DNA of 61,270 bases from an uncultured Candidatus Bathyarchaeia archaeon (GTDB taxonomy: Archaea > Thermoproteota > Bathyarchaeia > Hecatellales > Hecatellaceae): NCBI GenBank assembly GCA_964569845.1, contig CAZMUQ010000004.1:1-61270 (forward strand), written 5' to 3'. Positions 4,852 through 53,840 of this stretch are shown here, one piece after another (the first letter of the stretch is position 1; every line of letters starts with the position of its first letter). The position numbers and the translations under genes were made by a program. The notes under the pieces are model-generated. The model did not search any database, was not told where the DNA came from, and was given only the letters and a program-made list of their open reading frames with translations.

Positions 4852-5649
4852 ATGGATATAATTGTATGCGTTAAGCATGTACCAGATACTGCTGAAGCAG
4901 AACTTACTATTGATGAAACAGGCAAAGATATCAGAAAAACAGGCCTTGTTTTTGATATAAATGAGTGGGATAATTATGCTGTTGAGGAAGCTCTTCTTTT
5001 AAAGGAGAAGTATGGTGGGAAGATAACAGCAATAACTATTGGACCTAAGGAAGCTGAAGAAACTTTAAGGAAATGTATTGCGAAAGGTGTTGATGAAGCT
5101 ATAAGGTTAACAGATGACTTGTTTAAAGGTTCAGATGGATACACAACTGCAAGAATTCTTTGTAGTGCTATCAAAAGCTTAGATTTAAAATACGATTTAA
5201 TACTAACTGGTGCTCAAGCTGGAGATGATGGTTATGCTCAAGTTGGAGTAACACTTGCAGAGCTTCTTGGAGTTCAACACGTATCACTTGTAAAGAAGAT
5301 AGCTGAAGTTAAGGATGATGCTTTAAAAGTTCATAGAGAACTTGAAGGAGGCTTAGAAGAGGTTGTTGAAGTTAAAAAACCTGTAGTTTTAACTATTCAA
5401 ACAGGTATTAATGAGCCTAGATATGTTTCTATTGCAGGGGTTAGGAAAGCTGCAAAAAAGGAGATTAAAGTTTTAGGAGCTGCAGATATAGGTTTAAAGG
5501 CTGAAGATGTTGGAGAAGCTGGTTCTCCAACCGTATTAGAGAAGTTGTTTATTCCACCTGTAACTAAGCAAGCTGAAATTTTAACTGGTGATGTTAGCGA
5601 GGTTTCAAAAAAGCTTGTATCAATATTAAAAGAGAAGGGGTTGATATAG
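4852..5649 (+). CDS. etfB: Electron transfer flavoprotein beta subunit
   Basis: VCVKHVPD, INEWDNYAVEEA, GAQAGDD, INEPRY. Confidence 0.95.
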   Translation: MDIIVCVKHVPDTAEAELTIDETGKDIRKTGLVFDINEWDNYAVEEALLLKEKYGGKITAITIGPKEAEETLRKCIAKGVDEAIRLTDDLFKGSDGYTTARILCSAIKSLDLKYDLILTGAQAGDDGYAQVGVTLAELLGVQHVSLVKKIAEVKDDALKVHRELEGGLEEVVEVKKPVVLTIQTGINEPRYVSIAGVRKAAKKEIKVLGAADIGLKAEDVGEAGSPTVLEKLFIPPVTKQAEILTGDVSEVSKKLVSILKEKGLI

Positions 5650-5650
5650 G

Positions 5651-6637
5651 ATGAAGGAAATTCTTGTTTTAGTTGAGCATAGAAGAGGAGAAATTAGAGA
5701 TGTAACATTTGAAATGCTTTCTGAAGCTGTAAGGTTTGCTAAGAAAATTGGTGGAAATGTTTCAGCATTAATTCTTGGTTACGGTGTACAGGAATATGCT
5801 AAAATAATTTCGGATTATGCTAACCAAGTTTTAGTTGTTGAAGATGAAAAATTAAAAGAGTTTAATTCTGAAGCATATCAAAAGGTTCTTGTAAAGGTTA
5901 TTGGGGAGCGTAAACCATTCTTAACTCTTATAGGGCATACAGCTATGGGTATGGATTTAGCTCCAGCTCTTTCAGCAACCTTAAACATACCTTTAACAAC
6001 AGATTGTATATGCATTGATGTTGAAGATGGAAAGTTTGTTGCTATAAGACAGTATTATGGTGGAAAAGTTAATGGTAAAGTTGTATTTAAAGAATCTGAA
6101 AGTTTCATGGTTACTGTACGTGCAGGAGCATTTTCACCTGAAAAACCTGAACCACCTCTTGGTGGAGGAATAATATCTATACCTTCACCTTTAACAGATG
6201 AGGATGTCAAATATAAGAAGTTTATTGAGTATGTAGAGGCTGAAAAAGGTGAAGTTGATATTTCTTCAGCAGATATAATAGTTGACATTGGACGTGGAAT
6301 TAAGGATGCAAAAAACATCCCGATAGTTGAAGAATTTGCTAAAGCTATTGGTGGTGTTCTTGCATGCTCAAGACCAGTAGTTGATAAAGGTTGGCTTCCA
6401 AAGGATAGACAAATCGGCATATCTGGTAAAACAGTTAAACCTAAGCTTCACATAGCTTTAGGTGTTAGTGGAGCATTCCAGCATGTAGCCGGAATGAAGG
6501 GGGGCTTAATAATAGCTGTAAATAAGGATCCTAAAGCACCAATATTTAATGTAGCAGATTATGGCATAGTTGAAGATATGTTTAAGGTTATACCTATACT
6601 TAAAGATTTGATTTCAGAATTAAAGGGTAAAAAATAG
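5651..6637 (+). CDS. etfA: Electron transfer flavoprotein alpha subunit
   Basis: GRGI, ACSRPVVD, QIGISGKTVKP, GVSGAFQH, AVNKDPKAPIF..ADYG. Confidence 0.95.
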   Translation: MKEILVLVEHRRGEIRDVTFEMLSEAVRFAKKIGGNVSALILGYGVQEYAKIISDYANQVLVVEDEKLKEFNSEAYQKVLVKVIGERKPFLTLIGHTAMGMDLAPALSATLNIPLTTDCICIDVEDGKFVAIRQYYGGKVNGKVVFKESESFMVTVRAGAFSPEKPEPPLGGGIISIPSPLTDEDVKYKKFIEYVEAEKGEVDISSADIIVDIGRGIKDAKNIPIVEEFAKAIGGVLACSRPVVDKGWLPKDRQIGISGKTVKPKLHIALGVSGAFQHVAGMKGGLIIAVNKDPKAPIFNVADYGIVEDMFKVIPILKDLISELKGKK

Positions 6638-51077: not shown

Positions 51078-52271
51078 TTAAGCTTTAGCTATAACTTCAA
51101 TAGTTGTTTGACTTGTTGTTGCTAACTCAACTCCACCTCTAAAACCCTGTTTTGAAGAAACATTTTTTAGTTTAACCTTTAAACCCAATGGAAGCTTTGA
51201 AAGTATTTCTGCATGGTCACGCCAAGCTGAAACCTTAATTTCTCCGGTTTCATCCTTTAATAAAAACTCATAAATCTTAACTTTACTACCATCCTTTAAA
51301 GTTACATCTCTAACTCCAAAACTATCTTCAATTACACCTTCAATGGTTAAACCTCTAAGATTTGGTTGGATTTCCTCAATTTTTAAAACTTTTTCTTCAA
51401 CTTTTTCTGTTGAAGGCACAACTTTAACTCTTGAACGTTTACTTAAATGTGCCTCTAAACCTCCAAACATATTTTCTTTAATTCTGCTTCCAAAAATTTC
51501 AAGCTTATCTCCGATTTTAACATCTTTAATTTCATCAACTTTACTATCCCAAAAAACAACATCAACTTCCCCAGTTTCATCTTTAACTTTAACTCTTTGA
51601 ACTTTTCCTTCACCAACAATTCTTTTAAAAAGTTTAACAGGAGAAATGCTTATAACCACACCTTTAAAGTTGAAATCTTTTAGGCCGCTTTTCATCTCTG
51701 AAATTTTACCAAAAAACTCCTCATACTCTGGAATTTCAACCTCAGCAAGATCCGGAGATTCTAGAGTTATTCTACCCTTTTCTCCTAGATGAAGCTCAAC
51801 TTTACCATCAACAGAAAGCCTAGAGTATGCATGTTCAATCTTGACTATGCTGTTAACTTTAACCTCCTGCTCCTCTAAATCCTTAACCTTACCATTCCAA
51901 ACATAAACTTCAACAGTTCCAGTTTCATCTCCAATAAGAATTCTTCTTAAAACACCTTGAGAACCATTACTTCTCTTAAACTTTTGCAGAGGATTAATTG
52001 CTAAAACACGTCCATAAACTGTGACATCATTAAGCCCTGAAACAAGATTTCCAATTCTCATTCTCCTAGAAATTTTAGTATCACTAGTTAAAGAAACACC
52101 AAGTTCAGTAGCAACAAGAAAAGCCGCACCCTCAAAATTTAAAAGATTTTTAGCTTCGATTCTTTTCTCCTCAATAAGTCTAAAAACATCCTCTCTTGTA
52201 AGGTTAGGCTTCTCCTTTAAAATTCTCTTAACAATATCCTCAAGACTATAAGAAAAAACTCCCTGACTCAA
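51078..52271 (-). CDS. rpa: Replication protein A (three OB folds)
   Basis: N-terminal helical domain and three DETG-containing OB repeats. Confidence 0.88.
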   Translation of the reverse strand: MSQGVFSYSLEDIVKRILKEKPNLTREDVFRLIEEKRIEAKNLLNFEGAAFLVATELGVSLTSDTKISRRMRIGNLVSGLNDVTVYGRVLAINPLQKFKRSNGSQGVLRRILIGDETGTVEVYVWNGKVKDLEEQEVKVNSIVKIEHAYSRLSVDGKVELHLGEKGRITLESPDLAEVEIPEYEEFFGKISEMKSGLKDFNFKGVVISISPVKLFKRIVGEGKVQRVKVKDETGEVDVVFWDSKVDEIKDVKIGDKLEIFGSRIKENMFGGLEAHLSKRSRVKVVPSTEKVEEKVLKIEEIQPNLRGLTIEGVIEDSFGVRDVTLKDGSKVKIYEFLLKDETGEIKVSAWRDHAEILSKLPLGLKVKLKNVSSKQGFRGGVELATTSQTTIEVIAKA

Positions 52272-52340
52272 CAGTCTTCAACCCTTAAACAACAAGAAGA
52301 AGAGGAAGGCAAAAAAGTTAACTATTTAGAAAAAGGAGAA

Positions 52341-52570
52341 GCTAACCCCCTCTGGGTCTTGGTTGGGGGTAATTTACCGGCTTCCGCCTGGCTCCCGTCT
52401 ACACCGGTAAATTTCCCCACCCATCACAGTTACACCCAGGCGGGTTTGCTTGGGGTTTCCGAGCCCAGCCCCCAAGCCAAACTAGACGGGATGTAACTGT
52501 GAGAGGGGCTTGTGCCAGCCAACATAAAAATGCTGGCTGAACACAAGACCAAGCTTACCTGGAGGTTAGC
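52341..52570 (-). ncRNA. Unassigned highly structured RNA with terminal BHB-like stem and two pseudoknots
   Basis: GC-rich island in an AT-rich genome; eight helices of 6-12 bp identified by eye; pyrimidine/T tract follows on the minus strand; strand inferred from G-U pairs and BHB polarity. Confidence 0.72.
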
Positions 52571-52679
52571 TGAATTTAAGTTGTTTTCTAAGCCTAATAT
52601 TGTTTATCGATAAAATCGTGAAAAAAGTTGCTTTAAGGGTTACTTTTGATTAACTGAGTATAGGTAAAAGAGGTTTTGT

Positions 52680-52693
52680 CGAAAATTTTATAT
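52680..52693 (+). promoter_or_regulatory. BRE + TATA promoter for the small RNA / fau-1 leader
   Basis: CGAAAA-TTTTATAT; predicted start at about 52718, exactly where the duplicated 31-mer begins. Confidence 0.65.
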
Positions 52694-52717
52694 TTGTAAG
52701 TCGATTTTAGTATATTT

Positions 52718-52768
52718 GAGCCTAGCCCCCAAGCTAAACTAGATGGGAGGGGGGCGTTAAGCCCCCTT
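52718..52768 (+). ncRNA. Small RNA: 31-nt copy of the structured-RNA core plus an 8-bp hairpin
   Basis: 28/31 identity to 52461-52491; hairpin AGGGGGGC-GTTAA-GCCCCCTT followed by T-rich tracts. Confidence 0.6.
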
Positions 52769-52823: not shown

Positions 52824-53840
52824 GTGAACTATTTGGCTAGCAGATTTAAGGTTGAAGTTAGAGGAATCTATTCTACAGCTCTTACTAGCCTCCTTTCTAA
52901 GGAGTTTGAAGTTGTTAGGATGTCTGGGAAAATTAGGAAAAGATTTAATGTTAACCATGTTTCCCAAGATTTTGGAGATGTTTCCATTTTTGATAGGGAT
53001 GACAAACAAGGAGTTGTTATTCTTGGAATTTTTGAAGCTGCTGAGGCTGTTGTAGATTTTTTAAGAAGAAAACTTCCAGATGTTGTTGTTAGAGAAAAAG
53101 GTGTTAAAGGTTGGTTTGGCTATGGGCATTTTAACGTTGAATTTCCATATTTATCAAAGAGATTTTTAGATGAGGAAAGAAGTAAAATTGTTCCAACAGC
53201 AAACTTACACCATAGATTTAGAGTTTTTGCCTCAGATATTCTTGATGAAGCTGAAAAAATGCTTACTGTATACCCTGAAAAAAGATGCGAAATCGAAGAG
53301 GAGCTTAAAAAGCTTTTAAAATTTAGTGTTGGATGCGAAATTGAGGTTCAACATGTTAAAGTTTTTGGTGGAAGCATCAAGCTTAAGGGTTCTATTGTTG
53401 AAGTTAACTATCTTTTAAAGGTTAAAAGAACATTTAAGGGTTCAGGTTTTTATGATGGCTTGGACATCAAGAAGGAAGAAGGAGATTATGCAATAACTGA
53501 GATTGCTGAAGGCTCGTGGATAACAAAACATTCATATTATAGTTTTGATGGAAAACTTAAAGGAGAATTTTACAATATAAATACTCCAACAGAACTTTAC
53601 CCTTCAAAAGCTAGATATGTAGATCTTGAAGTTGATGTTGTAAAAATTCCAGGTCAAAGACCAAAAATCATTGATAAAGATAAGCTTACAATTCTAGTTG
53701 AAAATAAATGTATTAATGAAGATTTAGCAAGAATAGTTTTGGAAAAAGCTGAAAAACTCTCTAAAATGCTTCAAAAAGGTGAAGAATTATCCATTCTTGA
53801 TGATGAGATTAAACCTTTAGCTTTAAATCTTAGTGCTTAA
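52824..53840 (+). CDS. FAU-1-like RNA-binding protein/ribonuclease (DUF402), shortened
   Basis: VRGIYSTALT, H.VK, YDGL, GDYAITE, GEFYNINTP.E.YP...RYVDLEVDVV. Confidence 0.85.
   Translation: MNYLASRFKVEVRGIYSTALTSLLSKEFEVVRMSGKIRKRFNVNHVSQDFGDVSIFDRDDKQGVVILGIFEAAEAVVDFLRRKLPDVVVREKGVKGWFGYGHFNVEFPYLSKRFLDEERSKIVPTANLHHRFRVFASDILDEAEKMLTVYPEKRCEIEEELKKLLKFSVGCEIEVQHVKVFGGSIKLKGSIVEVNYLLKVKRTFKGSGFYDGLDIKKEEGDYAITEIAEGSWITKHSYYSFDGKLKGEFYNINTPTELYPSKARYVDLEVDVVKIPGQRPKIIDKDKLTILVENKCINEDLARIVLEKAEKLSKMLQKGEELSILDDEIKPLALNLSA

Follow-up and report, generated by a model that had tools for sequence, protein, structure and literature searches.

What does the only large G+C island in an otherwise AT-rich piece of an archaeal genome encode? 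The question is raised by a stretch of 61,270 nt (the window) of contig CAZMUQ010000004.1 (GCA_964569845.1), from an uncultured Candidatus Bathyarchaeia archaeon, in which 280 nt of the spacer between rpa and fau-1 reach 51% G+C as compared with 34% overall. On the minus strand, these nucleotides can be folded into a 230-nt RNA with two pseudoknots and a closing stem that resembles a motif of the bulge-helix-bulge (BHB) type, the substrate of the archaeal tRNA-splicing endonuclease EndA. The element had first been noticed in the letters alone, in what is here called the original prediction. In the following, we describe its fold and strand, its occurrence in related genomes, the closing stem and the alternatives that each of these suggests. 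The RNA is best explained as the product of a stand-alone structured RNA gene that would be processed at the BHB stem into a circle and serve as a scaffold or regulator, a reading to which, taken as a whole, we assign a probability of about 0.5.

Fold and strand of the RNA

RNA nucleotides are numbered along the minus strand, where nt 1 is window position 52570 and nt 230 is window position 52341. The elements of the fold are the following.

52341-52570, minus strand: whole structured RNA, 230 nt, a four-way junction of P1-P4 with two pseudoknots
52561-52570, minus strand: 5' strand of the outer closing helix, nt 1-10, forming 10 bp with nt 221-230, one of them U.G
52341-52350, minus strand: 3' strand of the outer closing helix, nt 221-230, pairing with nt 1-10
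52548-52553, minus strand: 5' strand of the inner helix, CUUGGU, nt 18-23, with 6/6 Watson-Crick pairs to nt 208-213
52358-52363, minus strand: 3' strand of the inner helix, ACCAAG, nt 208-213, pairing with nt 18-23
52509-52547, minus strand: P2 hairpin, nt 24-62, comprising 16 bp and an AU-rich loop (UUUUUA)
52420-52507, minus strand: P3 arm, nt 64-151, made of 3 bp, an 11-bp helix, an internal loop and an apical hairpin at nt 94-123
52483-52491, minus strand: pseudoknot strand a, UCCCGUCUA, nt 80-88, complement of nt 170-178 and strain-invariant
52436-52443, minus strand: pseudoknot strand b, CCGCCUGG, nt 128-135, complement of nt 180-187 and strain-invariant
52366-52418, minus strand: P4 arm, nt 153-205, made of 4 bp, an A.A mismatch, 10 bp and a 23-nt loop
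52384-52401, minus strand: P4 loop segment UAGACGGGA-G-CCAGGCGG, with a' at nt 170-178 and b' at nt 180-187

The model comprises 89 pairs, of which all but one are canonical (88/89), and leaves 52 bases unpaired. Every helix named in the original prediction was recovered from the sequence and the pair list where it had been placed. The four-way junction is a perfect one, has linkers of 0-2 nt and leads to P2, P3 and P4. Within P3 lies the helix CACAGUUACA/UGUAACUGUG, and the internal loop of this arm bears the pseudoknot strands a and b. Both strands find their partners in the loop of P4. The a/a' pseudoknot consists of 9/9 Watson-Crick pairs with a duplex energy of -14.3 kcal/mol, and the b/b' pseudoknot of 8/8 Watson-Crick pairs with a duplex energy of -15.8 kcal/mol. 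When the 23-nt P4 loop was shuffled, a 9-mer together with an 8-mer complementary to unpaired segments arose in none of 20,000 trials, and the loop segment is unique in the window even if 3 mismatches are tolerated. The two long-range pseudoknots of 9 bp and 8 bp that had been claimed are thus both perfect in Watson-Crick terms and exceed what the loop composition yields. Measured as far as the internal loop of P3 and the terminal loop of P4, the two arms are equally long, at about 15 helical layers each. In the modeled structure, the two cross-helices would create a three-way junction (P3 helix, a/a' and b/b') as well as a second four-way junction (P4, a/a', the apical hairpin and b/b'), and the RNA as a whole would take the shape of a closed frame of helices in which P3 and P4 are clamped together.

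The minimum free energy (MFE) of the fold is -119.6 kcal/mol (z = -6.65), and 0/200 shuffled sequences fold as well. Furthermore, the RNA domain folds autonomously and in the same way when the entire spacer of 552 nt is folded, and at 75 °C the fold energy still amounts to -43 kcal/mol. Together with the 88/89 canonical pairs, the z-score bears out the earlier assertion of a structured RNA on the minus strand, and we consider it very probable that this RNA is real.

The choice of strand follows from several features. Read on the plus strand, the same pair list contains 86/89 canonical pairs with three A.C mismatches, and the MFE of the minus strand is better by 11 kcal/mol. The polarity of the BHB motif is right on the minus strand only, given that on the plus strand the bulges would lie 5' of the central helix. 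Two elements resembling transcription signals bracket the RNA.

52595-52609, minus strand: CGATAAACAATATTA, similar to a B recognition element (BRE) and TATA box by consensus resemblance only, with its centre about 28 nt upstream of nt 1
52330-52334, minus strand: T5 tract, candidate archaeal terminator with a presumed role in termination, 7 nt past the 3' end of the closing helix

The BRE/TATA-like element is identical across all strains. Pair count, MFE, BHB polarity, the promoter-like element and the T5 tract all point to the minus strand.

Strains, sister species and selection

Via members of the 90%-identity RPA cluster, the species was traced to five more assemblies (L061-L065). The full element is intact in 5/5 of them, and its presence in five independent assemblies means that it is not an assembly artefact. 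Three distinct RNA sequences occur among the strains. The substitution U31C converts U.G56 into a C-G pair and A33G converts A-U54 into a G.U pair, both in P2, while U8.G223 of the window is U8-A223 in four strains (G223A); pairing is retained in all three cases. These helix variants, each common to several strains, pair on the minus strand only. The pseudoknot arms and the BHB motif are invariant across strains and, with three sequences, this leaves a covariation test without power and a shuffle control uninformative.

A longer evolutionary distance is provided by the sister species (L001, the same as L017), whose RPA and FAU-1 proteins are 87% and 81% identical to those of the window. Between the two species, 20.5% of the fourfold-degenerate RPA sites differ, which corresponds, for each of the two lineages, to about 0.1 neutral substitutions per site. 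For an unconstrained element under AT-biased mutation, about 18 hits would be expected in the 178 paired bases. The window copy has one non-canonical pair and three G.U pairs, and the RNA proper (230 nt) has kept 56% G+C. What is left in the sister is a minus-strand remnant (L001 5822-5925, identical to L017 2831-2932), in which the 5' part of a partial copy lying upstream of the RNA and the 3' third of the RNA itself have been joined, with further deletions. It shows 19 mismatches in 76 aligned bases, 15/19 of them GC to AT, has neither a G+C island nor structure (z = +1.27), and its decay approximates the neutral rate. As a separate observation, the fusion resembles a deletion between 31-nt repeats, which would have been followed by loss of the apical hairpin and the pseudoknot loop and by GC-to-AT decay. 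This contrast between window and sister is the best evidence that the structure has been kept by selection in the window species and appears dispensable in the sister, since 88/89 pairs remain canonical despite a neutral divergence of about 20%.

By its FAU-1 relatives, the organism falls within Bathyarchaeia, near Candidatus Hecatellales. A synteny survey covered 11 genome loci reached via FAU-1 and further loci reached via RPA homologues. Three relatives (L002-L004) keep the rpa/fau-1 arrangement with a spacer of about 200 nt that holds no trace of the RNA, and the more distant RPA relatives L066-L068 have not kept the arrangement. When a covariance model was derived from the strains, it matched nothing in related and other loci totalling about 235 kb and revealed no second copy in the window. 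Searches of viral contigs with five sequence patterns yielded chance matches only, for two of the patterns, and these were rejected by nhmmer; in the metagenome contigs of JGI, a 17-base pattern taken from the loop produced 42 hits by chance, in contigs of high G+C, none of them homologous, and blastn against plasmid and phage records returned nothing. A G+C patch upstream of FAU-1 in a distant Bathyarchaeia genome (L006 5481-5620) was set aside as it lies inside a Pro/Thr-rich open reading frame (ORF; 5138-5863, minus strand) and is unstructured (z = +1.6). In these data the RNA is, so far, lineage-restricted and found in one species.

A narrow distribution of this kind would also be left by a mobile or extrachromosomal remnant, be it an ORF-less BHB intron, an element like a miniature inverted-repeat transposable element or a virus or plasmid RNA, that a recent ancestor acquired in its rpa/fau-1 spacer and that serves no function in the host. 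The presence only in the clade formed by this species and its sister, next to an empty outgroup spacer, would suit such an origin, as would the deletion and decay in the sister, the partial duplicate and 31-nt direct repeat adjoining the RNA, and the nearly perfect helices that befit a young sequence. We nevertheless regard it as improbable, because there is one copy in 61 kb, 0/10 large ORFs encode a transposase or integrase, the immediate neighbours are of the housekeeping type and nothing was found in viral contigs, phage or plasmid records. A structure held against about 0.1 substitutions per site and AT-biased mutation speaks for selection rather than for a dead relic.

The same comparison bears on the relation of the RNA to its neighbours, which are the following.

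51078-52271, minus strand: rpa, encoding an RPA-like OB-fold protein, flanking the RNA 70 nt downstream
52824-53840, plus strand: fau-1, a FAU-1/DUF402 gene, flanking the RNA on the other side

The original prediction had listed an rpa leader switch among the possible roles. Indeed, the RNA shares its strand with rpa, from which it is 70 nt away on the upstream side, and might be part of a long 5' untranslated region (UTR) of this gene, either as a spliced BHB intron or as a cis-acting switch. A BHB intron in a 5' UTR has a precedent in Haloferax HVO_1309 (PMC7714728), and the T5 tract may permit read-through. This idea does not sit well with the relatives: the spacer of L002-L004 lacks the RNA, and L001/L017 have a decayed copy even though rpa is intact there. 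Moreover, a block AAATAGTTAAC...GGGTTGA between the RNA and the start of rpa (within 52272-52330) is conserved in all spacers of L001-L004, including species without the RNA. It likely represents the promoter and the ribosome-binding, Shine-Dalgarno-like region of rpa, so that in all species rpa would have its own promoter and leader downstream of the position of the RNA. The T5 tract, in addition, follows directly after the RNA. A role as an rpa leader switch is therefore not upheld, and the wider idea of an rpa 5' UTR element seems rather improbable. Given the conserved promoter-like block and the T5 tract between the RNA and rpa, the RNA is most simply viewed as a putative transcription unit of its own.

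The bulge-helix-bulge stem and the predicted circle

Between the outer and the inner helix, the closing stem carries the two halves of the BHB-like motif.

52554-52560, minus strand: 5' half of the motif, AGGU at nt 11-14 and the bulge AAG at nt 15-17, predicted cut A16|G17
52351-52357, minus strand: 3' half of the motif, ACCC at nt 214-217 and the bulge AGA at nt 218-220, predicted cut G219|A220
52352-52554, minus strand: excised circle of 203 nt (nt 17-219) predicted from the BHB geometry, with the junction ACCCAG|GCUUGG

As a rule, cleavage of a BHB motif follows the second base of each bulge, and under this rule the 203-nt segment 52554-52352 had been derived correctly. The two 3-nt bulges lie on opposite strands, each 3' of its strand of the central helix, as in a canonical hBHBh' motif, and are flanked by helices of 10 bp (outer) and 6 bp (inner). 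The central helix has four positions, of which G12-C216, G13-C215 and U14-A214 pair and A11.C217 is the sole non-canonical one; the motif totals 11 G-C pairs, and its 3' half is invariant in all strains. The reported hBHBh' geometry with one A-C mismatch thus fits in the sizes, spacing and polarity of its parts and in its flanking helices. By definition, a BHB motif consists of a four-position helix with a three-nucleotide bulge on either side, and the (alpha-beta)2 endonuclease of the TACK superphylum (Thaumarchaeota, Aigarchaeota, Crenarchaeota and Korarchaeota) has a broader substrate range and accepts relaxed motifs (PMC7714728). In its context the motif is credible, without being proof by itself. 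Its geometry makes the excision of a 203-nt circle plausible, and for BHB processing and circularity of the RNA we would put the odds slightly below even.

Several observations weigh against the reading of a selected, BHB-processed RNA gene. With regard to the strains, C35A in L065 breaks one P2 pair, and no pair shows a compensatory double change among the three distinct sequences. The density of segregating sites in the RNA (6/230) is close to that at third codon positions (15/398), meaning that the strain data alone reveal no sequence constraint. No homologue beyond one species was found in the searches run, the loss in the sister implies that the RNA is probably not essential, and near-perfect helices would fit a young element as well. 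Further points concern the stem itself: the central helix contains the A.C mismatch (A11.C217), the BHB register is less stable than the MFE register by 0.6 kcal/mol at each of 37, 60 and 75 °C, and BHB geometry with G.U pairs allowed arises at six sites in the window. Finally, as the RNA is confined to one uncultured species, its support from comparison and its general importance are both limited.

The points on the stem would favour a linear, stable small RNA in which the stem protects the ends, the BHB likeness is coincidental and EndA makes no cut. The A.C mismatch, the difference between the MFE and BHB registers and the six chance BHB-like sites are all in keeping with it, and the ends of the helix are already framed by the promoter-like element on one side and the T tract on the other. 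Chance is, however, strained by bulges of exactly 3 nt, four positions apart and of the right polarity, that are set between strong helices of 10 bp and 6 bp. No other site in the window is of such G-C content, with 11 G-C pairs in the RNA stem and at most 6 in any of the other sites. The BHB register costs 0.6 kcal/mol only, and relaxed motifs are taken by TACK endonucleases (PMC7714728). A linear RNA is hence an unlikely alternative to the circle, albeit one to be taken seriously.

Neighbouring sequences and known RNA families

Upstream of the RNA, on the side of fau-1, two further elements are found.

52718-52748, minus strand: upstream partial copy of RNA nt 80-110 (52461-52491), a direct repeat with 28/31 identical positions
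52750-52766, minus strand: hairpin GGGGGC-UUAAC-GCCCCC, a perfect 6-bp G-C stem directly upstream of the partial copy

The repeat copies exchange states among strains. In L061 and L065, the upstream copy gains the G of the RNA at two sites, and the RNA of L065, which carries G93A and G111A, has gained the A of the upstream copy at nt 93 and 111, which makes it identical to that copy; such swaps indicate gene conversion that is apparently ongoing. The GGGGGC hairpin is absent in the sister, which has AGAAGCUUAAC-CUCC in its place. The left arm of the hairpin is similar to the 3' end of the RNA (GGGGGUUAGC), and the following GCUUAAC..CCUCC is similar to the 5' end, likenesses which hint at an old tandem or rearranged copy. 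On the plus strand, a strong BRE/TATA-like sequence (CGAAAATTTTATATTTG, 52680-52696) would predict a transcript start at about 52718-52722. The first 31 nt of this predicted transcript would be antisense to RNA nt 80-110 (28 Watson-Crick and 3 G.U pairs), with the hairpin GGGGGGCGUUAAGCCCCC and then a run rich in U coming next. Such a transcript could serve as a short antisense partner or as a long leader of fau-1.

From this arrangement, the RNA might be seen as a trans-acting antisense partner of the plus-strand transcript from the fau-1 side that regulates fau-1 or a short antisense RNA. Pairing over 31 bp would be possible between nt 80-110 and the plus transcript of the copy (28/31 identical), the three differences in the window and the one in L064 are all RNA-G versus copy-A, hence G.U in the duplex, and CGAAAATTTTATATTTG would start transcription at about 52718-52722. 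The pattern of differences is explained equally well by gene conversion combined with GC-to-AT decay in a duplicate that is not under selection, and the probability that all of them run from G to A by chance is about 0.09 only. Strings resembling a TATA box abound in AT-rich spacers, the promoter block of fau-1 that the sister has as well is situated downstream of the copy, and once the RNA is folded, nt 80-110 are tied up in a pseudoknot and a helix. An antisense role is, for these reasons, quite improbable.

Further out, the gene neighbourhood includes GH57, deacetylase and acyl-CoA dehydrogenase genes. The ten other large ORFs that were tested are metabolic or housekeeping in character; mobile-element signatures, transposases and integrases are all absent from them. 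The start codon is TTG or GTG in rpa as annotated and in several nearby ORFs.

Searches for a known identity were negative throughout. Rfam 15 at the gathering score gave no match in the whole window, and at E up to 10 queries of 901 nt and 241 nt retrieved sub-threshold chance matches, mostly to models of microRNA hairpins. The sR52 C/D-box model, for instance, reached 12.4 bits, with a gathering score of 50 and E = 9.3, at 52299-52322 of the plus strand, just outside the RNA, and is noise. ARAGORN detected no tRNA in the window, and a gathering scan of seven related loci with Rfam returned tRNA-Leu only. The longest ORF in the region encodes 45 aa, and none of the ORFs had a relative. A chimeric six-frame pseudo-peptide query matched nothing in a set of 5.8 billion proteins, which implies that no ORF has been called on a close homologue in that protein collection.

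Individual candidates were likewise discarded. For signal recognition particle (SRP) RNA, including permuted forms, no SRP model matched at E up to 10 and the helix-8 motif order, a GNAR loop with AGCA and AGG loops, was not seen by inspection, and for RNase P RNA (types A, M and T) no model matched at E up to 10 and no P4 consensus was seen by eye. A tRNA or a tRNA with a giant intron is contradicted by the empty ARAGORN and Rfam results and by the AT-rich flanks of the stem. There is no CUGA in the RNA and no credible Rfam match for a C/D RNA, and the hairpins lack a pseudouridylation pocket and an Rfam match for an H/ACA RNA. Omega RNA (TnpB/IscB) and bridge RNA (IS110) were rejected in view of the housekeeping-type neighbours, the single copy in the window and the pairing of both RNA ends. 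Self-cleaving ribozyme classes gave no Rfam match, and a hammerhead core (CUGANGA/GAAA) was not seen by eye, this inspection covering the hammerhead class. Lastly, a replication origin was dismissed as the element is G+C-rich and missing in relatives.

A known essential RNA, such as a permuted SRP or a reduced RNase P RNA, could still have been overlooked by the Rfam models. The permuted, BHB-circularised SRP RNA of Thermoproteus is a precedent (PMC4731332), and the loop CCAGGCGGAAGCC is faintly reminiscent of SRP helix 8. Against this, the 241-nt query met no noncoding RNA family at E up to 10, neither the AGCA/GGAA arrangement of helix 8 nor the P4 consensus was seen by inspection, and the decay in the sister would be unlikely for an essential gene unless a second copy exists elsewhere. 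An overlooked RNA of this kind is very improbable. The absence of RNase P, SRP, tRNA, C/D and H/ACA signatures noted at the outset was supported by the Rfam and ARAGORN scans, and the Rfam search proposed there as a check found no known family. The suggestion of a new RNA class fared less evenly: it agrees with the lack of an Rfam family but does not gain support from covariation, the homologues being strains of the same species only.

Proposed pathway and comparison with known systems

Starting from the fold, pseudoknots, strand, structural selection and narrow distribution described above, we infer transcription, EndA cleavage, circularisation and function along the following lines. The RNA would be the product of an independent, lineage-restricted small-RNA gene on the minus strand of a thermophile-related Bathyarchaeia archaeon. 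Its transcript would fold co-transcriptionally into the four-way junction, with the 18-nt core of the P4 loop pairing with both strands of the P3 internal loop. EndA would then cut at A16|G17 and G219|A220, and an RtcB-type ligase would join nt 17-219 into an exonuclease-resistant circle of 203 nt. The mature RNA would most probably act as a very stable protein-binding scaffold or as a regulatory RNA that is useful yet dispensable, as a sister species has lost it. More tentatively, and with the balance tilting against it, it might represent an undescribed archaeal RNA family, a BHB-excised 203-nt circle from a stand-alone gene with a clamped frame that functions as a ribozyme, a ribonucleoprotein scaffold or, if the pseudoknot complementarity is used between molecules, a self-assembling RNA.

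If transcribed and circularised, the RNA would come from the second free-standing archaeal gene with a BHB-generated circle as its product, after the SRP RNA of Thermoproteus, and its cargo would have an unassigned role and an unusual, very rigid topology. It would offer RNA structural biology a compact, thermostable fold of 203 nt and would add a new EndA substrate outside tRNA and rRNA. The sister species would then form a natural presence/absence pair in which the role of the RNA could be probed.

Several known systems share single traits with the RNA. The Hgc and SscA RNAs of AT-rich hyperthermophiles were reportedly found by composition screens, in work ascribed to Klein et al. 2002 and Schattner 2002, and both families are in Rfam. 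As with these, a sharp G+C island in an AT-rich genome marks a structured RNA whose function is unassigned; unlike them, the present RNA has no family match, and its topology is more complex, with two long pseudoknots and a BHB stem. The raiA, OLE, ROOL and GOLLD RNAs are bacterial or phage-borne, mostly larger, widespread and supported by covariation. They are comparable in being elaborate, pseudoknotted RNAs without a known biochemical role, whereas the RNA described here comes from an archaeon, measures 230 nt and has one known host species. In principle, the long complementarity between its loops could operate intermolecularly as well. With the ribozymes of the hepatitis delta virus (HDV)-like, glmS and twister classes, the likeness extends to the label 'double pseudoknot' only. 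HDV has a nested P1/P1.1/P2/P3 order, while here the strand order is a - hairpin - b ... a' - b' and helices of 9 bp and 8 bp bridge two arms of a four-way junction.

Closer parallels are found among RNAs processed at BHB motifs. In archaea, BHB-excised circles comprise the pre-16S/23S rRNA intermediates, tRNA introns and the 5' UTR intron of HVO_1309 (PMC7714728). The present RNA shares with them a long stem with two 3-nt bulges and a helix of four positions, from which cleavage by EndA and ligation would be expected. It differs in that its content is not rRNA, a tRNA intron or a C/D RNA, in having no host gene, the 'exons' being pieces of 16 nt and 11 nt from one and the same hairpin, and in the A.C mismatch of its central helix, with processing here being a prediction. 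The permuted SRP RNA of Thermoproteus, which is made functional through BHB cleavage and circularisation (PMC4731332), is similarly encoded by a stand-alone noncoding RNA gene of the TACK group whose mature form is a BHB-released circle, as is predicted for the present RNA. In contrast to the SRP RNA, the latter has no SRP signal or sign of permutation and is dispensable in the sister. The closest known counterparts are the archaeal BHB circles, and above all the Thermoproteus SRP RNA, with which the RNA appears to share its processing architecture, but its cargo resembles no family in sequence or fold.

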